This document shows, in pieces, positions 24,577-43,950 of a DNA stretch of 64,000 nucleotides. The notes beneath the pieces are model-generated. The model was not told where the DNA came from. It saw only the letters and a program-made list of their open reading frames with translations, and ran no database searches. Where the stretch lies: positions 32,001 to 96,000 of the forward strand of contig CAWCAG010000001.1 of the NCBI GenBank assembly GCA_963793425.1, read 5' to 3'. This DNA is from an uncultured cyanobacterium (GTDB taxonomy: Bacteria; Cyanobacteriota; Cyanobacteriia; Cyanobacteriales; CAWCAG01). A program made the translations under genes and the position numbers. Within the stretch, counting starts at the first letter, position 1; each line of letters starts with the position of its first letter.

Positions 24577-27102
24577 TTGATAATTGATTTCGGGTGCATC
24601 GTGTTTTCTAAAGTATTTACTCCTTTGCTAAGTTTAGGTTTAGCTAGTATTAGCTATGGGGCGATCGCAAATCCTCTTAATCCGACAGTAGTTAATGGTA
24701 GGGTTGAGTTTCAGGGTTTGGGGACAGAAAATTTACAGATTACTAATTCTCCTGGGGCGATTATTAATTGGCAAGACTTTTCCATTAACAATGGGGAAAT
24801 AACTCGCTTTTTACAAGAAAACTCTCAAAGTGCCATTCTCAACCGCGTTACTGGAATTAATCCTTCTCAGATTTTTGGTACTTTACAATCGAATGGGGCA
24901 GTCTTTTTAATTAATGGTAACGGTATTTTGGTGGGCAGTGGGGCAGTAGTTGATCTACAAAGTTTAGTTCTTTCTACTTTAAATATAAGTGATCAAGATT
25001 TTCTCAACGGTAATTATCAGTTTAACCAGATTGGTAATGGTAGTCCGATTGTGGTAGAAAATGGGGCGCAAATTACGACGGTTAATGGGGGTCAGGTTTG
25101 GTTATTAGCAAAAACCATTAATCACCAAGGACAGATTACCACCCCCACAGGACAAACTATTTTAGCAGCGGGGACTCAGGTAAAAGTATCCGAGTCTGCT
25201 TTGGGGAGAATGGTTTTCAACCTGACAACTGATGGTAGCAACAGTGTTGAACAGTTAGGAGAAATTGCCGTACAACAGGGAGTTGTGGCACTATTCGCTG
25301 ATCATATTGCTGTAGAGGATAACGCGAGAATTAGTGCTGATGGTATTGGGAATAGCAATGGTGGACAGGTAATTATTCAAGCAGCCAACCAGTTAACCAT
25401 TGCTGGGCAAGCAGAAGTATCTGCTGATGGAGGCTTAAGCGGGGGCGATGGCGGTACTGTTACTTTAACCGCTTATGATTTGCAAGTATCCCCTGTTGCC
25501 AATAGTTATAGCAATGTTCGTGCCAACCGTCGCCACAGTAGCGGGGCTAATGGTACGGTGAGTTTAACGGAGACGGGAAGCCATGATTTAATTCCTGTAG
25601 GTGGCGAATTTGCTGTTAATACTTTTACCGATGAAGGGCAAGATACCGCCGATGTTACCGCTTTAAAGGATGGTGGTTTTGTGGTGGTCTGGGAAAGTGA
25701 AGATCAAGATGGTAGTGTTCAAGGGGTTTATGGGCAGATTTATGATCAGCAAAATAGTAAGGTGGGAGGAGAGTTTCAAATCAACACAGCTACTACTAAC
25801 TCCCAAGAAGATCCTCATGTTACTGCTTTGAGGGATGGTAATTTTGTAGTGGTTTGGGAAAGTAATAATCAAGATGGCAACAATCGCGGGGTTTATGGAC
25901 AGATTTATGATAGTCAAGGTAGTAAGGTGGCAGGGGAGTTTCAAATTAATACCACTACTAACAACTCCCAGGAAAATCCTAGTGTAACCAACTTAGCTGA
26001 CGGCGGATTTATGGTTACTTGGGAAAGTCGGGGGCAGGATGGTGATGGAGATGGTATTTATGGACAGCGTTACAACAGCAACGGCAATGTGATTGGTAAT
26101 GAATTTCCGATTAACACCACTACTAACAATGATCAAACTGTTCCTACGGTAGTTGGTTTAGGCGATGGTGGTTTTGTTACTATTTGGGTTAGCAGAGATC
26201 AAGATGGTAGCGGAGAGGGAATTTACACTCAACGTTTTGATGGGAGTAGTAATCCTGTCGGGAATGAGTTACAGGTTAATACAGAAACCATTAATGCCCA
26301 AAGAGATCCTCATATCACTGGTTTAAACGATGGTAGCTTTGTTGTTACCTGGGAAAGCAATGATCAAGATGGTGATGGTAAAGGGGTTTATGCCCAAGTT
26401 TATGATCTTAACAGCAACACTATCAGCAACGAAATTCAAGTTAATTCCTTCATCACCCAAAGCCAAGAAAACCCCAAAGCTACAGCCTTAGCAGATGGTG
26501 GTTTTGTGATCGCTTGGGAAAGTTTAGGACAAGATGGTAGCAGTGATGGGGTTTATGGGCAACGTTATGATCGCCAAGGAAATAAAATTGGTAGCGAGTT
26601 TGCCATCAACACCACTACTAACGATGCCCAAACTAACCCTTCCCTAATTGGTTTAGCTAATGGGGGCTTGGTGGTAGTTTGGGCAAGCAAGGAACAAGAT
26701 GGTAGTAGTACAGGAATTTATGGGCAAAGCTTCAGTAAAAATGTTGTGATCGCCCCTCTTGGGGCAACTCTAACCAGGGAGTTGGGGCAGTTTCCTAATT
26801 TTGATACTATTGCTGATACTAGTGATAATGTTTTGATTGTTCCTATGATGCCGACAATTCCGACAGGACAATCTTTACCCACTATCATACCAACAATTCC
26901 CGTAACAAACTTATCACCTAACTCGTCTCCTAGCTTGCCAGAAACAACCAACTTAGTTGCCCCCTTCTGTTTTGACTTCAACCTGGCACAACCCAGTTTT
27001 CGCCCCGAATATTGTCAAATCAACAGAGTTTGGTATCACTCTTCAGGTTCAACCCAGCGATCATCAGCTTTAATCAAACTAATCAACTCTTTTACCCCCT
27101 GA
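24577..27102 (+). CDS. Filamentous haemagglutinin N-terminal (TpsA-type) secreted protein with 7 x 55-aa repeats
   Basis: Signal-like N-terminus; [31 protein letters not shown] secretion domain; 165-bp periodic repeats from 25600. Start may be GTG at 24601. Confidence 0.85.
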
Positions 27103-36919: not shown

Positions 36920-39900
36920 CTAGCCACGACAAAGATTATCCCGCAAACTCTTTTCTTGCTGTTTAACTGCTGCTAATAGTTCGGCGTGTTGAATAATTAC
37001 CCCAGCTTGGGAGTTGAAAATATCCATATACTTTTCATCATTTTGGTCAAAGCTTGTACATAAATATTCCGGTATCTCTTCGTTGCCTTCCCTGTAGGGT
37101 TCAGCATAGTCTCCAAAGAGTTTCTTATTAACCAATTGAGTGACCCCAATCAAATCCCCATCAGGATTCCAAACCGGAGTACAAAGTAAGCTACAGGTAC
37201 GATAACCAGTCTTGCTATCGGTCTTTTTGGCAATTTCCGATTGGGGATGGGTGTACAAATCAAAGGGGATATTCAAAGACTCTTTGGTTCGAGCAACAGA
37301 ACCGGCATAACCAACTCCCACTTTAATCCGTAATTCTTTGAGAGAACCATCTTCAAAAGGAATTTTCGTCCACAATTCATTGCTACGGAGATCCAATAAC
37401 CAAAGGGTGCTGCGGTCAGAGTTAATTAATTCTTTCGCTGCTTCCATAACTCGCTTGAGTATATCCTCTGGTTCTAGGGTACTTTGGTTAACAGAACGAG
37501 TAGCAGCCATTAAAGCAGCGGCTACCCTCTGCCCCCTAGCTGTTTTGTGGTAGGAACGGAAGCTTTCTAAAATCATTTGGATGAGGGGAACTTGGGAGGC
37601 AAAACGTTCTTCATCTTTAGGAGTGAATCCCTCTTGGTCAATTCTTGCTTCTAAAGGGGCATTTTGATCACTAAAACGTTTCAGTTTGTTGAGACATTGA
37701 ACAACAGCAAATAAATCTCCTTGCTCGTTTAAAAGAGGGAAATTTAGCATACTGTAGGTACGATAGCCATTTTTACGATCTTGTTCTTTGGCTGTGAGGG
37801 AACGGGGGTCGTCGTAAAAATCGTAGGGAATATTCATAACTTTCTTGCTAGCAGCCACTTCCCCCACAATACCTTTGGTGATGGGAATGCGAATTTCTAG
37901 GGAGCGATCGCCTTCTGCTTGGGCGACAATTGACCAAAATTCATCTCTTTCTTCATCAAGGAGGAAAATACTGGTACGATCTGCTTCAACAGATTTACCA
38001 AGTTTTTGAGAAATGGAACGCAAAGTAGAGTCCATAACTTCATCGAAACCCTGACTTTCCATTACTTGGGTTAACATGGCTAAGGTTTGACTAACCACAT
38101 TTTGGGGATTACCTTCTGCTTGTTCTTTCATGGCAGCGAATTTTTTGGCGTTTTGAATAGCGACCCCAACTTGAGAATTGAATATTTGCATATATTTTTG
38201 GGAGTTGGCATCGAAGCTTGCTTGAAAACATTCCGGTGCTTCTGGCCAGTCAACAGGATTATATGTAGGAAAATTTCCTGGTTTCCTTTTATTTACGAGT
38301 TGAGTAACGCCAATTAGTTCCCCATCAGGACTCCAAACAGGCATACACAAGAGGCTACAGGTGCGATAACCGGTTTTTTGGTCGGTTTCTTGGGCTGTTT
38401 CGGAGTCTATATGGTTGTAGAGGTCAAAACCAATGTTTAAAGGCTCTTCTGTGGCAGCAACTTTCCCGGCATAACCTTGACCTACTTGTACTTCTAATTC
38501 CTTGACGCTACCATCTTCAAAAAGAATTTTTGTCCATAATTTGTCAGCTTCCCTGTCTAATAACCATAAAGTGCTACGGTCGGCATTCATCAATTTTTTA
38601 GCCGCATTCATAACATTGTGAATCACCTCATCGGAGTCGAGACTACTTTGGGAAACGACTCGGGTAGCAAAGGTGAGGGCTTCGGAGGCTTGTAATCTTT
38701 GGGTTAATTTATAGCAGTATTGACATCTTTCAATGATTCGTAAAAGTTCTGGTGCATATTCACTAAATTGCTTTTGGTCAGCTTCGTTAAAACCTTCGCG
38801 ATCAATACGATTAATTAAGGATTCAGTGGGATGATTGTTTTCTTCTAACTTGTTAATTAAGTTAACAACTGCAACTAATTTATTATGTTTATTTAATAAA
38901 GGGACAGCTAAAAGAGTATAGGTGGGATAACCTGTTTGTAAATCGACATTTTCCGGTTTTTCAAAGTTACTATCTTGGGCATAACCAAAAGGCACTTTGA
39001 CCATCTCTTTTAAACTTGTAACCAAATCAACAATTTCGCGATTAGCACTAACTTCTACTTCAGAGCCAAAATAGTTACTTTGATTCCGGGCAATAATTGA
39101 CCAAATTTCACTTTTTTCTTCATCAATTAAATAGATGTTAATGCGATCAACACAAAGCAAATCGCTCATTTTTAAGGTAATAGAACCTAAAATTTCATCG
39201 AGGATATAATCAAAGCCTTTCCCTTCCATAAAGTTAAGCATGGAGAGGAGTTTTTGCTCTTGTTTGGCTACTACTTGCATAAAGTCAGCGTGCAAATTAG
39301 CTAAAGCTTTATTAACCCAATTCCAATTGAATACAGCAGCATAAATGCGATTATAAATACTTAAAATAGGGGTGGACTCTTTCTTCCCTAACCATCTTTT
39401 AACCACCAAACCAGAAAGCCGTAATTCCATTTGTTCAGGAGTTTCTTCAGCAGGAATTTCTCCTAAATTACTTTCTTCGGTAGCAGATTGGGCAGAAAGT
39501 AAAATTTGCTGATAAAGCTGCAAAAGAGGGCCACTCCTTTGACCAATTCTTAAGATGCGATCGCGGATAGTTTTCAAATGAGGCGGATCATCAGTGGCTT
39601 CCCAGTTATCAATGATGCGTCTGCGGACGATATCTTCTACCCACCTAGCAATATCACGACCATAAACATCTCCTTCATTTTCTACTTCTTGTAAGATTAA
39701 ATAACAAATTTTTTGGGTTAAAAAAGGTTGTCCTCCAGTCCAATATAAAACCGCTTCTAATACTTCCTGGGGCTGACTAACTTTTCCTTCTAAACCTTTA
39801 GCTAAAGGTTGGGCTTCTGCTAAGTTGAAGCCATTTAATTCAATGCCACGACCAATATTAAAAGGAGTACAAGTTTTATCTTGAATCAAATCCGAAGGAG

Positions 39901-40450
39901 TTGCTACCCCTAATAAAGCAAAAGTAAGGCGTTGATATTCAATACAAGCGCGGATAAAAGCAAAAAAATCATCAGTACTAAAATTTAAGCTGAGAATACT
40001 ATCAATTTCATCAATAAAAATAACAATTTTGCCCGGTACAGATTCTAATAAAACCTGTTCAATAAACTCGCTTAAACGCTGTACCGGGGGGAGAAATTCT
40101 CTTTCTTTTAGCCAACGTTGCAGTTTGATGCGATCAGCTAATTTAAAATTCATGACTAAGCGTCGCATCACCCCGGCATACCATTGTTCTGGGGTAATAT
40201 CCTGGGAACCAATTTTAGTTAAATCAACAGCCCCACAAGCTACACCTTCTGCTTGCAAGCGGTGCATCGTCCTCACCCGCAAGCTAGTTTTACCCATTTG
40301 TCGCGAATTAAGAACGTAGCAAAATTCCCCTGCTTTTAACCCTTGATATAATTCCTGATCCGCTTGGCGTACCACATAAGTAGGAGCATCTAAATGTAGA
40401 TGTCCACCAACTTTGTAGCTATAATTTAAGGTTCGCTCTTGACTTATCAT
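36920..40450 (-). CDS. AAA_35 ATPase fused to four GAF domains, with no catalytic output domain
   Basis: [16 protein letters not shown] (Walker A), IFIDEID (Walker B), [10 protein letters not shown]; then two tandem GAF pairs ([23 protein letters not shown]...F..DE). Confidence 0.88.
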
Positions 40451-40598
40451 GGGTCATTTATCATTGTTGGCGTTTCGCGTAGTCTGGCGACAATGCTCCG
40501 CAAACGTGTAAACGTTGTCGTATTTACTATGCGTTGCCGTAGGCTAGCCTTGCGCCCTGGCTACATTAAACATTAAACGTTAAACATTTATCAATTAA

Positions 40599-42431
40599 TT
40601 AATTTCCTAGGCGATCACTAAAATATTGACGATATAATTCAAAGCGGGGTGTTACCTCATTTCCTTTTAAGTGGACTAAGCCGAGACTGTGTAACTTAAA
40701 TGCTAGTACAGATTCCAACTCCACGGGTTTTCTCATTGTTACTACTTGACTTAAAGCCAGTGCCAACTCTGGATGTTGTTGTAAGTTCCAAAGGTGGCGA
40801 CGCAAGTGATCTCCATAAATACCTGCTTCTGTAGGAGCAGTTTCTGATAGCTTTTTTAGGCTAAGCTGATGTTTAACTAGATGATAGAGAGCGACCTGTA
40901 CTAGATAGGGATGTCCTCCCACAATATTCATCAACTGTTCCACTTGCTCTGAGTGCCAGTTAAGTCCGTAACGTTGAGCAAGATCAGCCACTTGAGGGTT
41001 AGTAAATTCCCTTAATTCAATGGGTAATCCTACATTAAAGGGGGATTGATTAACATTCAAGGGTAGATATACCTCTGTTGAATGTACTACCACTAACCTC
41101 AGCTTCTCCCAGAGATCGCTGTCACCATAACCATAGCCAGCCTCTTCGTACCAAGCCCTTAAAAGTCCGAAAAAGTCATCGGCTACTTTAGGATATTGAA
41201 AAACTCGGTCAACTTCATCTAAGCCTAAGACTAAAGGGCTATCAGCTTCTGGTAAAAGTAGATCCTCAAAAATGGCCGTGCAGTTATCTTTGCTGCCGTA
41301 GGTATCTGTCCAGTAATCATCTACTTTATAGGGTAAACGCAATTTACGGCAAATTTTAGTACAAAACCAGCGTAGAAGCTGATTGAGGTTGGTGAATACT
41401 CCCTTATCTGCGTGTTGGAAGCTTAAGGGGACGGTACGATAGCCTTGTTCTTTGGCTTGGTAAAGAATTCTGGCCATTAAGGAAGTCTTACCCATTTGGC
41501 GTGGTGCTTTGAGGCGTATTAAAGCCCCTGGTTTAACAATTTCCTGGTAACATTGTTCTTCTCCAGGAACCCTTTTGACATAAAAAGCAGAAGCTAGGCG
41601 TACTTGTCCTTTGGGCAATTCTGGTTCAGCGACAGGTAAAGGAGGAGGAGTAGGAGTAGGGCTGAGATGATAAGTTGGAGTTGCTTCATCAATTAGGGGG
41701 AGACACCATCCCCCCTGACCAGACAAAATATTGCTAATCTCTTGGATAATACCAGGAGTATCTTCTGGCGATCGCCAATCTCTTTGATAAGTCCCTTGAA
41801 GGTATCTACGGAGGTCGTGGTTAAGGGGAACTGTAGGGGGACAGTTGATTCTTACGGTAAGGATAATCGGTTTAGTTTGTAAATCTTTGTCTTTAGCTTG
41901 TCTCAACTCCTCAATTAACATTTCGCTTGTTGCTGCTTGGGGAGAAAGAAGGAGTAAAAAGTAATCACACTGTTCTAATTCTGAATCAATTTGTGCTAAC
42001 CAGTTTTCCTCCGTTAAACCGACACTAGCCCTAAAAGCTTGGTGTCCTGCTGTTTCTAGGGCAGTGGCTAATTGGGTAGCTAGTTCATGATCTGGTTCTT
42101 GGTGCAAATAACTAAGGAATACTCGCTTAATCTTCTGGCTGGTTTCTTCCCTGCCCTCTTCTCCTTCCTCTTCCTGGCGTTTTAAAGCCCGTTCTAAGGC
42201 CCCTCTGATTCTCTTTTTTGTTACCTTTTCCCCCAAAGCATTGGAGAGTTTTTGCCATAATTTATAACCCACATACTTTTCGATGTATTGGGGATTGAGG
42301 GGGTAAATCTCTTCATAGGTTCGTCCTTGGCACGAACCGATAAAGACTTCCCTTTCGAGGTCATTAAGATGTTTACCAACTTTTTGATAAACTAAGCGAT
42401 CTACTAATTCTAAACCTTGATCAAAATCCAT
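40599..42431 (-). CDS. HTH - TIR - AAA_35 ATPase protein
   Basis: N-terminal wHTH (LNDLE...G.TYEEI...LWQKLS.ALGEKVTK); TIR (VFLSY, CDYFLLLLSP, SEMLIEEL); [25 protein letters not shown] at 42431 preferred. Confidence 0.88.
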   Translation of the reverse strand: MDFDQGLELVDRLVYQKVGKHLNDLEREVFIGSCQGRTYEEIYPLNPQYIEKYVGYKLWQKLSNALGEKVTKKRIRGALERALKRQEEEGEEGREETSQKIKRVFLSYLHQEPDHELATQLATALETAGHQAFRASVGLTEENWLAQIDSELEQCDYFLLLLSPQAATSEMLIEELRQAKDKDLQTKPIILTVRINCPPTVPLNHDLRRYLQGTYQRDWRSPEDTPGIIQEISNILSGQGGWCLPLIDEATPTYHLSPTPTPPPLPVAEPELPKGQVRLASAFYVKRVPGEEQCYQEIVKPGALIRLKAPRQMGKTSLMARILYQAKEQGYRTVPLSFQHADKGVFTNLNQLLRWFCTKICRKLRLPYKVDDYWTDTYGSKDNCTAIFEDLLLPEADSPLVLGLDEVDRVFQYPKVADDFFGLLRAWYEEAGYGYGDSDLWEKLRLVVVHSTEVYLPLNVNQSPFNVGLPIELREFTNPQVADLAQRYGLNWHSEQVEQLMNIVGGHPYLVQVALYHLVKHQLSLKKLSETAPTEAGIYGDHLRRHLWNLQQHPELALALSQVVTMRKPVELESVLAFKLHSLGLVHLKGNEVTPRFELYRQYFSDRLGN

Positions 42432-42609
42432 ATATATACTGATAAGACTATGATTGATTTTAATCTGAAATTCAAGATGAGGTAAGGGGTAAAGCAAGAA
42501 TCAAGAGTAAGTTTTCTAGAGTTTTTACTTAAAAAAAATGAACATAATTACTAATTGAATTAAGTGTTTATTCTTGAATTAATATTTTGGTTATCAGATC
42601 CTTTAAAAT

Positions 42610-42625
42610 ACTGATTCAGATCACA
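42610..42625. promoter_or_regulatory. Candidate CRP (SyCRP1-type) binding site
   Basis: ACTGA-TTCAGA-TCACA matches TGTGA-N6-TCACA at 8 of 10 positions, in a divergent promoter region. Confidence 0.4.
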
Positions 42626-42957
42626 GCCAAGATACAGTTAATTATTTATTTTTTAGATATAGACTTTGGGGATATAAGTGCTTTCCTTAAGTTATTTTTT
42701 ATTAAGTAGTAGCTAGTATGGGGTTTTATGAGGTCTGGAATAAAGATGGTTTTTGAGATGATTTTATAGCATTAACAAGAACTAAGAAACTTATGGTATT
42801 TCCTGGTTCTCCTCCCTCAAGTATTTAGTTAAAATTATATAAAGTAAGCAATATTCAATCGTTGTTTAATTAATTAAGAAAAAACTGAAATAGTCAGAAT
42901 CAACTTAGCTATTTCAACTGGATTGAAACAAAAGTAAAGTCCACCAGGTAAACAGAA

Positions 42958-43950
42958 ATGTTTAACTTAACTCAAGAAAGAATCGATAGCTGTGTGCGGC
43001 GTTTGCAAGGTGGTTACTTCCGTATTTACGGTAGTTCCAGGGCTGAATATGCTGAATTAATTGCTAGTGTAGCGAGGATTGGTTTAGACAATATTGCTCG
43101 TAGTGATGCTGCCTATCATGATGTAGATCATACTATTCTTGTTACCTTAGCCGGACAAGAAATATTGCGAGGTAAACACATTCGCGAGGGTAATGTTTCT
43201 TGCGATAATTGGTTCCATTCGATTATTTCTTTGTTATGCCATGATATTGGTTATATAAAAGGAATTTGTCGTCAAGATAACCCTCAAGAAAAGTTGTTTG
43301 TCACAGGGAAAGATAGGGAAGCAATCACCTTAAAACCAGGGGCTACCGACGCGGCTTTGACTGATTACCATGTAGACAGGGGCAAACTATTTGTTGAAGA
43401 GAACTTTTCTGGTTATAAACTAATTGACATAGAAGTTATCAATGAAAACATTGAAATGACTCGTTTTCCTATTCCCCAAGCAGGAAAATATCAACAAACT
43501 AGTACCTATGCAGGCTTAGCTAGGGCGGCTGATTTAATCGGTCAATTGGCAGATCCTCACTACTTGCAAAAAATGCCAGCTTTATTTTACGAGTTCTGGG
43601 AAAATGGTACTAGTGAAAAGCTAGGTCATCACCATCCAGGGGAGTTGCGTTCTGCTTATCCTAACTTCTTCAAAACTGTGGTTAGTCGCTATATTCAAGA
43701 GGCTTTGCATCACTTAGAAGTTACCAGACAAGGGCGAGAAATTATTGCTAGTTTGTATGAAAATGTTTGGGTTGTGGAAAATGAGTTAGAGAACAAAGGT
43801 GGTAACAGTTTGGGGCAACTCCCTCGAACCCTACCTTCTATACCTTCTGTAACCGATGTCGGTTCTATTCCGACCAAAGCTAACTTTTTCTCCAGTCAGG
43901 GCGGGCTGGGAAGCTGGTTGCATAAGTCCTTGCGTATTAGTCATGCCTGA
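42958..43950 (+). CDS. HD-domain metal-dependent phosphohydrolase (Npun_R2479-like)
   Basis: YHDVDH, CHDIGY, YHVDR and RAADLIGQL motifs. Confidence 0.85.
   Translation: MFNLTQERIDSCVRRLQGGYFRIYGSSRAEYAELIASVARIGLDNIARSDAAYHDVDHTILVTLAGQEILRGKHIREGNVSCDNWFHSIISLLCHDIGYIKGICRQDNPQEKLFVTGKDREAITLKPGATDAALTDYHVDRGKLFVEENFSGYKLIDIEVINENIEMTRFPIPQAGKYQQTSTYAGLARAADLIGQLADPHYLQKMPALFYEFWENGTSEKLGHHHPGELRSAYPNFFKTVVSRYIQEALHHLEVTRQGREIIASLYENVWVVENELENKGGNSLGQLPRTLPSIPSVTDVGSIPTKANFFSSQGGLGSWLHKSLRISHA

Follow-up and report, generated by a model that had tools for sequence, protein, structure and literature searches.

A three-gene cyanobacterial locus with paired AAA_35 ATPases, tandem GAF domains, and a phosphodiesterase-like enzyme as a possible cAMP feedback module

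Introduction

What would two AAA_35 ATPases, one headed by a helix-turn-helix (HTH) and a TIR domain and the other ending in four GAF domains, have to do with a phosphohydrolase gene that points away from them? The question is raised by a locus in a stretch of 64,000 nucleotides from an uncultured cyanobacterium of the order Cyanobacteriales (assembly GCA_963793425.1, contig CAWCAG010000001.1, positions 32,001 to 96,000 of the forward strand), which we call the window. Three intact open reading frames (ORFs), confirmed at positions 36920-43950 of the window, make up the locus: gene A (HTH-TIR-AAA_35) and gene B (AAA_35-GAFx4) lie on the minus strand, and the phosphohydrolase gene, HD, is transcribed divergently from this pair on the plus strand. 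A first interpretation made from the letters alone, here called the sequence-only reading, had taken the locus for a nucleotide-signalling system and possibly an NLR-like defence or regulatory circuit. The most economical reading of the results presented here is a cyclic AMP (cAMP)-gated, two-protein, MalT-like switch in which the HTH subunit would control a divergent gene of cAMP metabolism, and not an NLR-like defence; we regard this as an evenly balanced proposition.

Three genes that travel together

The domain searches with Pfam support the TIR, AAA_35, and GAF domains given above. A matched TIR_2 (3e-15) and AAA_35 (8.5e-150), and B matched AAA_35 over residues 16-255 only (3.8e-22, a divergent copy) and GAF in four stretches (1.4e-47), with no further Pfam domain beyond the GAFs at its C-terminus. 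The Walker A (RQMGKTS) and Walker B (DE.D) motifs are invariant in A and in B (8 and 12 sequences, respectively).

Linkage of the three genes was surveyed first in 41 related genomes and then in 401 genomes of the order. Among the 41, full-length orthologs of B are present in seven genomes besides the window's own, with one more cut by a 4.4-kb contig. All seven full-length loci have the same HD/A/B arrangement, and the housekeeping flanks are common only to the genome of the same genus. Near-full-length AAA_35-GAFx4 proteins were found in 83 of the 401 genomes and 39 of the 142 genera, and we divided them into closer relatives of B (group 1, ~59-71% identity) and distant ones (group 2, 43-55%). 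A further 21 group-1 loci came from other genera: 13 hold the full trio, 2 are cut by a contig end, 1 (genome G301) has A and B without HD, and in 5 only B is present. In four of the five B-alone genomes an A ortholog (63-69% identity) is encoded on another contig, with HD divergent from it there; the fifth genome (G184) yielded no close ortholog of A. Altogether, HD adjoins A in 25 of 26 resolvable loci across many genera. The link between HD and A is tighter than that between A and B, and HD, A, and B form one conserved module whose members travel together. The sequence-only reading had called for this co-occurrence, and its description of the genes held as well: the ORFs are intact, the TIR, AAA_35, and four GAF domains were recovered by Pfam and the HTH by the ESM Atlas, the Walker motifs are invariant, and the divergent gene encodes a phosphohydrolase with the expected YH..H/HD/D residues.

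That reading had also supposed that the two ATPases interact. The complex model of A residues 265-610 with B residues 1-400 scored 0.71 (0.70-0.72 in three runs), and the best of three controls scored 0.00. The mark applied to this score is reached by 116 of 157 solved complexes and by 2 of 215 mismatched pairs, counts that are only rough, own alignments having been used. The runs had at least 87% of their contacts in common, with a predicted local distance difference test (pLDDT) value of at least 82 for the partner, and the segments of the confident interface (A 375-382, B 78-96, and others) are invariant within each family. The ATPase modules of A and B are thus predicted to bind each other, as had been supposed.

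Both ATPase modules belong to a larger set of paralogs. For the first ~390 residues of B, each genome has dozens of paralogs whose C-terminal parts differ (frames of 420 to >2000 aa), and the AAA_35 module of A matches many proteins of ~450 aa. Genes of type A and type B are repeatedly adjacent (for instance at G012:C173, at ~5.08 Mb of G008:C1, and at ~4.60 Mb of G013:C1), and the A/B pair represents one version of a cassette that has been copied many times. The window's own genome has three AAA_35 genes within 17 kb at G000:C9:811311-827915, one of them a TIR-AAA_35 paralog with 56% identity to A over residues 124-630.

The spacer between A and B can hold additional genes. A DUF4058 gene (~259 aa) lies there at five loci (L014:11515-13124, L057:1150-2046, L060:9888-10667, L061:4958-5737, and L067:4007-4783), accompanied by an AbiGi-like gene in L014 and by a gene for a ClpP-like SDH protease in L057. 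These DUF4058, AbiGi-like, and SDH protease genes look like optional insertions.

The GAF domains of B resemble those of a cAMP receptor

The four GAF domains of B are closely related to a tandem GAF of solved structure, the adenylate cyclase tandem of PDB entry 1ykd, with a phmmer E-value of 1e-168 and both tandems covered. Residues 784-1075 of B align with chain positions 9-296 (340.9 bits) and residues 613-781 with positions 222-390, gap-free (234.7 bits). From these two stretches we conclude that B holds two GAF-A/GAF-B tandems, and an internal duplication of the GAF region is visible in tblastn. The third and fourth GAFs contain NK...F..DE-like strings, in keeping with the "NKFDE" label used in the sequence-only reading.

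According to PMC4411481, 1ykd is Anabaena CyaB2, a protein that is activated through its GAFs by cAMP and not by cGMP; the same paper names T293, I308, D356, and N359 in GAF-B and reports that I308A reduces cAMP affinity. CyaB2 numbering was converted to the 1ykd chain index by an offset of 57, counted by hand, which reproduces all four named residues. In each of B's GAF-B-type domains, residues equivalent to T293, I308, and D356 are retained (T627/I642/D690 in the first, T1015/I1030/D in the second), and the equivalent of N359 is Thr in both (T693 in the first), such that three of the four contact residues are kept. By these comparisons, the GAFs of B are of the cyclic-nucleotide-binding kind, as had been proposed, and specifically of the 1ykd adenylate cyclase type. 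Because of this closeness and the retained T, I, and D in the GAF-B-type domains, cAMP is most likely the ligand of B. The further suggestion that the GAFs read a product of the TIR domain is unlikely, given how close they are to the cAMP-binding GAFs of 1ykd.

A repeated box upstream of HD

Exact k-mers shared among the intergenic regions amounted to one 8-mer only. A repeat search, however, found direct repeats spaced by 10 bp in several of the HD-A intergenic regions. The repeated element, hereafter the box, has the consensus GTTTTATGAGGTTTTAT from 31 sites, with copies 10 bp apart on the HD-sense strand. With the relaxed pattern T[TC][ACT]TGAG[CGT]T[TC]T, the seven non-redundant loci of the discovery set gave 13 sense and no antisense sites in 3,794 bp, compared with 0.1 in dinucleotide shuffles; this count is circular in that the pattern was derived from the same seven loci. 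Thirteen new trio loci served as an independent set and gave 31 sense and no antisense sites in 7,069 bp, where 0.22 are expected, with at least one site in all 13. The genome background of the pattern is 0.019 per kb per strand.

The layout of the boxes is regular: two or three copies stand exactly 10 bp apart, with one more copy ~55-95 bp nearer HD. Measured to the start codon of HD, the sites are 120-335 bp upstream (473 bp at one split locus), and their distance to A varies (~60-390 bp in 12 loci, ~1 kb in L052). The box also accompanies HD genes that have no A beside them. In G301, where HD lies 790 kb from A and B, the box is still present, and genome G015 has a second HD paralog that lacks a neighbouring A gene and is preceded by a box 231 bp upstream. 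In the A/HD intergenic region of the window, a matrix built from the 31 sites of other genomes placed the best boxes at 42713 and 42723, 10 bp apart (9.0 and 9.8 bits).

A stricter two-box pattern, TGAGBTTTYMTGAGBTTT, was found at 60 places in the 401 genomes, which make up 55 loci in 53 genomes; the reversed pattern, as a control, gave ~12 hits in 11 genomes (counted from the table). At 30 of the 55 loci, the next gene downstream of the boxes belongs to the HD family and reads on their strand; 14 of these were placed by coordinates in loci examined before and 16 come from 40 newly examined loci, with G100 left out. In the window's own genome, the other AAA_35 and HD loci show no clustering of the motif.

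Box-like arrays were also seen away from the trio. In five genomes of genus g37 (L138-L142), a tandem box, CCTGAGCTTTCCTGAGCTTTTCTG, is conserved at ~640-665 bp before the gene of a ~445-aa protein without a Pfam family, far from the trio in the same genomes. Two loci of genus g71 (L150 and L151) have at least four boxes 214 bp upstream of a 111-aa ORF, with a weak H_lectin match in one; no HD, A, or B was found within 3 kb of either array.

A sister group with a cyclase in place of HD

Group 2 offers a comparison in which the neighbouring enzyme differs. Among the 19 group-2 loci examined, six (L081, L082, L084, L085, L087, and L089) have a GAF-tandem gene divergent from an HTH-AAA_35 gene without a TIR domain, followed by AAA_35-GAFx4. 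The divergent gene encodes a GAF-GAF-PAS-adenylate cyclase by Pfam in five of the six; L084 is placed here on tblastn GAF matches only. Two of the three group-2 A proteins scanned (L082 and L087) end in a class III cyclase domain. In the intergenic regions of these loci, tandem (A/C)TGAATTTT boxes read in the sense of the cyclase gene and recur every 9 bp (own count), with a further copy downstream, and the group-2 HTH is 31-35% identical to that of the window.

With HD in group 1 and a cyclase in group 2, the conserved partner of the GAFx4 ATPase is either a phosphodiesterase (PDE)-like enzyme or a cAMP synthase, and the box varies together with the HTH. The window's own genome also encodes a CyaB-type cyclase with 62% identity over 845 aa to the cyclase of L081 and a second one at 41%; over 30 additional sequences in it match the cyclase portion of the query.

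The HD protein has a fold like that of class I PDEs

The HD protein matched the NCBIfam model NF045583, "Npun_R2479 family HD domain-containing metalloprotein", over profile positions 1-275 of 275 with 426.4 bits (cut-off 400), and is the lowest-scoring of the three NF045583 copies in its genome. The family counts 4,697 proteins at E<=1e-5, for which the source names are only "metal-dependent phosphohydrolase" or "Npun_R2479 family", and is present in 20 of the 41 related genomes with 1-5 copies each. Residues Y53, H54, H58, H95, D96, and D192 are invariant in 37 family members; H54, H58, H95, D96, and D192 are putative equivalents of the metal ligands of PDEs.

We generated a predicted structure of HD with AlphaFold2 from these 37 sequences and compared it to solved structures. 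The model has a mean pLDDT of 86.5, with an unconserved, disordered tail at residues 284-330 (pLDDT <50). The top Foldseek matches in the PDB were all class I PDEs (PDE10, PDE1B, PDE5, and PDE6), over ~310 columns with E ~1e-3 and a template modelling (TM) score of ~0.5. A structure search independent of Foldseek gave the same picture: the best 17 of 48,161 chains were all class I PDEs, with Z 14.7-17.0 and a root-mean-square deviation of 3.3-4.8 over 225-259 residues, and they come from animals, kinetoplastids, a choanoflagellate, and yeast. Generic HD hydrolases trail behind with Z<=13.4 and ~172 residues aligned.

Four fusions were found among the longer members of the HD family. One of them, P0126 (700 aa, from a cluster of 30 sequences), joins an HD domain 41% identical to that of the window to a cNMP_binding domain and a SpoIIE/PP2C phosphatase.

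Neighbourhoods were annotated for 40 of the 44 HD copies that lie outside trios. The best-scoring HD clade stands beside a co-oriented OppC-type ABC permease gene (BPD_transp_1 + OppC_N) at L097, L099, L101, L102, L103, L110, L111, L113, L114, L116, L117, and the own-genome locus L021, an arrangement that is conserved. The OppC-linked copies group together in a quick tree, with a support of 93. Given this linkage, the general role of the HD family may lie outside cAMP. A general link between the HD family and nucleotide-signalling genes was considered and dropped, the neighbours of the 40 copies being mixed. A second HD paralog of the window's own genome (G000:C9:122754-123620; L022:7755-8621) is divergent from genes for a patatin and a CD-NTase (SMODS + AGS_C), a CBASS-like pair. 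The pair is missing at the copy from the same genus (L130), so the adjacency looks incidental.

The HTH and TIR domains of A

No HTH family was found in Pfam for the N-terminal ~95 residues of A (0 of 23 orthologs at E<=1). The ESM Atlas, on the other hand, assigned the first 95 residues to PF26355, HTH_VMAP-M9, with a feature score of 0.87 and a structural TM of 0.81-0.94. In the Atlas this is an N-terminal domain of cyanobacterial AAA_35, NB-ARC, and NACHT ATPases, and a cluster of 71 members with the architecture AAA_35 + TIR_2 + HTH_VMAP-M9 means that this architecture has already been automatically catalogued. The domain is strongly conserved, with 22 invariant columns among the 23 orthologs, and the model places helices at residues 3-18, 24-34, 39-42, 47-66, and 75-93. 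AAA_35 is listed among the accessory domains of sigma-70-family proteins in a sigma-factor survey (PMC11119718). The conflict-system paper of Kaur et al., which is the source of the VMAP name, gives HTH, GAF, and TIR as effector modules (PMC7159879); "AAA_35" occurs 0 times in its main text.

The TIR_2 domain was detected in all 23 A orthologs, and its model (pLDDT 80.5) has as its best Foldseek matches the SPARTA TIR-APAZ, SARM1, RPS4/RRS1, RUN1, and Cat1 structures, which confirms the TIR fold. Profile alignments to Cat1 (E 0.05) and Roq1 (E 0.7) have weak E-values and agree with each other. With that limit, the segment S-E-M-x-x-E174-E175-L of A aligns with "SDWCWDEL" of Cat1 and "STWCLEEL" of Roq1, and E86 of Roq1, which we take to be its catalytic residue, falls opposite E175 by count on the Roq1 alignment. 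This canonical catalytic position is Glu in the A protein of the window and in 14 of the 23 orthologs, the remainder having T, I, V, K, A, or M. In all 23, M, I, or L stands where the W-x-x-x-E motif has its Trp; S169, E170, and E174 are invariant. Because Glu is kept in only 14 of 23 and Trp in 0 of 23, a conserved NADase role for this TIR appears unlikely, and it is most likely an oligomerisation or scaffold domain.

Searches for known defence systems gave little. With PADLOC-DB v2, no family matched B or HD, and A gave matches in its TIR region only (best E 1.1e-6). As for Thoeris, only ThsB models matched (E 3e-4 and 1.4e-3), NF058526 gave 25.7 bits against a cut-off of 220, and no ThsA-like gene was found among the neighbours. 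Sequence searches of the PDB with HD, A, and the TIR region alone returned nothing useful.

Proposed mechanism

We propose that the locus serves cAMP feedback in cyanobacteria, as a conserved module at whose core is a STAND-like ATPase switch split over two proteins, an interpretation that we think could fall either way. B would bind cAMP through its GAF tandems, and the ATPase modules of B and A would pair into a nucleotide-dependent hetero-oligomer that sets several A HTH domains on boxes one helical turn apart. This assembly would switch the transcription of HD, whose product would hydrolyse cAMP or a closely related cyclic nucleotide, and the loop would thereby set the cAMP level. HD is the candidate target because a conserved, putative operator for the HTH is found before it; MalT, the model for such a switch, binds repeated MalT boxes. 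An HTH output was part of the sequence-only reading and the HTH was borne out, a conserved operator before HD having been no part of what it foresaw. Whether cAMP turns HD on, which would be negative feedback, or represses it is a guess, with the slightest lean towards the former.

Evidence against the feedback module and alternative readings

A number of observations weigh against a cAMP feedback module. Concerning linkage, B lies apart from A in 5 of the 21 new loci, and in genus g78 (L074 and L075) HD is divergent directly from B, with neither A nor a box, across a spacer of 495-545 bp. Concerning the boxes, those of the window are weak (9-10 bits compared with at least 15.3 for the reference sites) and are outscored by four chance sites of at least 11 bits elsewhere in the window, and no relaxed-pattern site was found in the discovery locus L018 or in the split locus L092. 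No HD, A, or B lies within 3 kb of 24 of the 55 two-box loci, and the genes downstream of these are of various kinds, judging from scans of 12 of the 16 sense ORFs there. As A and B are paralogous, their complex model may show generic AAA_35 packing and not hetero-specificity, and the A protein of the window itself retains Glu at the canonical TIR catalytic position, so that this copy could still act as an NADase.

The HD protein contributes further points of this kind. Its model is all-helical, and in such folds Z up to ~14 can come from common arrangements. Among the 40 non-trio copies with annotated neighbourhoods, 12 adjoin the OppC-type permease, 2 an AI-2E transporter, and 2 a patatin, with the others in unrelated contexts. 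In the quick tree, the trio-linked copies are clustered but do not form one clade (5 label changes compared with a shuffled mean of 13.6, and none of 500 shuffles as low). HD has no match to PF00233 (PDEase_I) or to any Pfam family at E<=0.01. It also fails the class I signature PS00126, H-D-[LIVMFY]-x-H-x-[AG]-x(2)-[NQ]-x-[LIVMFY] (PMC5617230): its H95-D96-I-G-Y99-I-K-G-I-C differs at positions 5, 7, and 10, and Y99, where the signature requires His, is nearly invariant in the HD family. The likeness to class I PDEs drawn in the sequence-only reading accordingly survives for the fold, where all of the top 17 matches belong to that class, and not for PF00233 and PS00126. Judged from the model, HD has a class-I-PDE-like fold, though it is not a class I PDE at the level of its sequence.

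The alternative that survives best keeps the cAMP-responsive regulator, with cAMP as input only, and lets HD act on another phosphoester, such as a 2',3'-cyclic or linear nucleotide, an alarmone, or a TIR-derived ADP-ribose (ADPR) product. The missing class I signature and Pfam model favour such an enzyme, and the main HD clade by the OppC-type permease, the other paralogs in unrelated contexts, and HEAT-repeat HD fusions without a nucleotide link point the same way; the alarmone hydrolases SpoT, RelH, and Mesh1 and SidE-type PDE domains also match the HD model, at Z 9-12. However, the best fold matches are all class I PDEs across the whole 280-residue core, the HD-cNMP_binding-SpoIIE fusion exists, and the sister group would regulate a cAMP synthase, so that the two groups have cAMP metabolism in common. 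We consider another substrate possible but doubtful.

A defence or cell-death role of the NLR-like kind, as the sequence-only reading had suggested, would have the GAFs bind cAMP or an alarm nucleotide, the TIRs gather and degrade NAD+ or make an ADPR-type signal, and HD reset or buffer the response. A conserved operator before HD points instead to a transcriptional output, and the sensor is closely related to a cAMP receptor with a housekeeping role. The sister group has the same sensor and no TIR. The TIR fold, whose best structural matches include NADase TIRs, speaks for defence, as do the Glu in the window and 14 orthologs and the invariant E174; yet 9 of the 23 orthologs have T, I, V, K, A, or M in place of the catalytic Glu, and none of the 23 has the motif Trp. 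Other points in its favour are that HTH_VMAP-M9 also heads NB-ARC and NACHT proteins, that the paper behind the VMAP name lists TIR, GAF, and HTH as effector modules (PMC7159879), that DUF4058 and AbiGi-like genes are inserted between A and B at some loci, and that the A/B family has undergone a very large expansion, a common trait of conflict systems. Against these stand the PADLOC result, which consists of weak TIR matches only, and the housekeeping flanks and even composition of the region. This part of the sequence-only reading is thus not sustained, and we judge such a role unlikely.

That the boxes are not the operator of A but a promoter or untranslated-region element of HD serving another factor, or an RNA element, with A and B acting post-transcriptionally or on other targets, is the least probable reading: boxes before HD copies without an adjacent A (G015 L133, G301 L164, and G366 L165) and the strict strand bias and position, which would also suit a transcribed leader element, favour it, whereas the sister HTH has a different but analogous box and period before a different enzyme gene, as covariation of box and HTH predicts, genus g78 lacks the box along with A, and G015 and G301, the genomes checked for an unlinked boxed HD, encode A elsewhere.

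Comparison to known systems

The cAMP feedback module shares features with several characterised systems, and no characterised system with its layout was found in the literature, most subscription journals and bioRxiv supplements lying outside what was covered; the sequence-only reading had likewise named none. Among them are MalT/LAL-type STAND activators such as Escherichia coli MalT. There, too, a P-loop ATPase couples a small-molecule sensor to an HTH, and here, too, the active oligomer would bind asymmetric direct-repeat boxes upstream of its targets. In contrast to MalT, the sensor and the DNA-binding output are found on two paralogous ATPases, which departs from the single-chain STAND architecture, the HTH is N-terminal and of the VMAP-M9 type with a TIR between it and the ATPase, the ATPase is AAA_35 and not of the MalT type, and the ligand would be cAMP.

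With Anabaena CyaB1/CyaB2, B shares the GAF-A/GAF-B tandem with its kept T, I, and D, but the tandem occurs twice and on an AAA_35 ATPase rather than a PAS-cyclase, and the Asn has become Thr. The GAF-regulated class I PDEs (PDE2, 5, 6, 10, and 11) similarly tie a cyclic-nucleotide GAF tandem to a catalytic domain of the same overall fold with a putatively equivalent H..H/HD/D metal site; here, however, GAFs and HD are encoded by separate genes, the proposed link is transcriptional and not allosteric, and hydrolysis of cAMP or cGMP by an enzyme that lacks the class I signature and Pfam match is putative.

TIR-STAND receptors (plant TNLs such as Roq1 and RPP1 and bacterial TIR-bearing Avs/NLR-like proteins) also have a TIR N-terminal to an oligomerising NTPase, and a cNMP-activated TIR effector described in the Pucsar preprint (10.64898/2026.08.12.744502) resembles our locus in having a cyclic mononucleotide as a possible trigger. 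Unlike these, A has an unconserved canonical Glu, no motif Trp, an HTH, a conserved candidate operator nearby, and no PADLOC match as a system. The sensor here is a GAF, a word that occurs 0 times in the main text of the preprint.

Feature coordinates and neighbouring genes

The coordinates of all features are collected in Table 1. The longest ORF of A (40599-42497, minus strand) opens with a TTG at 42497; we placed the start at the ATG at 42431, the probable true start, because all orthologs begin at the matching Met (MDF...) in the alignments.

Table 1. Features of the HD/A/B locus, with positions counted from the first nucleotide of the window.
Feature	Position	Strand	Basis
Gene B: divergent AAA_35 ATPase with four GAF domains, 1176 aa, proposed cAMP sensor	36920..40450	-	ORF, Pfam
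B second GAF-A/GAF-B tandem, residues ~788-1176	36923..38089	-	1ykd alignment
B first GAF-A/GAF-B tandem, residues ~401-787	38090..39250	-	1ykd alignment
B NTPase module, residues 1-390	39281..40450	-	Walker A G53-K54-T55-S56 and Walker B D147-E148..D150, invariant in 12 orthologs
Gene A: HTH(VMAP-M9)-TIR-AAA_35, 610 aa, proposed DNA-binding output	40599..42431	-	ORF, ortholog starts, Pfam
A NTPase module, canonical AAA_35	40617..41615	-	Walker A RQMGKTS, Walker B LGLDEVD, 498.6 bits
A TIR domain, residues ~103-236 from M23	41724..42125	-	TIR_2, Foldseek
A N-terminal helical HTH domain, residues 1-93 from M23	42153..42431	-	ESM Atlas PF26355 HTH_VMAP-M9
A/HD divergent intergenic region, 526 bp, 27% G+C	42432..42957	.	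Sequence
Two weak box copies 10 bp apart, candidate operator	42713..42739	+	Matrix scan; 245 and 235 bp upstream of the HD start
HD gene: Npun_R2479-family metal-dependent phosphohydrolase, class-I-PDE-like fold	42958..43950	+	NF045583, model; core residues 1-283

The flanking genes look housekeeping (ispG-, cysH-, M16 peptidase-, mltG-, tsaB-, and oligopeptidase B-like, with names read from the translations only), and base composition is even across the region. A consensus scan for promoters and terminators found 10 promoters where 17.0 were expected from shuffles, i.e., below expectation. Elsewhere in the window, an 841-aa ORF at 24577-27102 on the plus strand has, judging from its translation only, about eight tandem repeats of ~45 residues ("...DGGFVV.WES..QDG...G.YGQ...") after an N-terminal region.

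Implications

A broader and more tentative proposal is that the Npun_R2479 family may be the bacterial counterpart, and possibly the evolutionary source, of eukaryotic class I PDEs, and might include a cAMP phosphodiesterase of cyanobacteria that has gone unrecognised. Its trio members would be under a heteromeric, split STAND-like cAMP receptor, in which the four-GAF protein licenses the TIR-HTH protein onto phased boxes, and the same type of switch would control a CyaB-type cyclase elsewhere, so that one receptor architecture would govern both the making and the breakdown of cAMP. We hold this to be possible but rather doubtful as a whole.

If the feedback module is real, it would single out a particular gene as the candidate for a cyclic-nucleotide phosphodiesterase in cyanobacteria. 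Its product would have its fold and a partnership with GAF domains in common with the PDEs that are drug targets in animals, the partnership here running via transcription instead of allostery. It would give the large family of paired AAA_35 ATPases of multicellular cyanobacteria its first ligand, target gene, and DNA operator. It would place a TIR domain inside an apparent housekeeping regulator, which bears on the reuse of immune-type domains.

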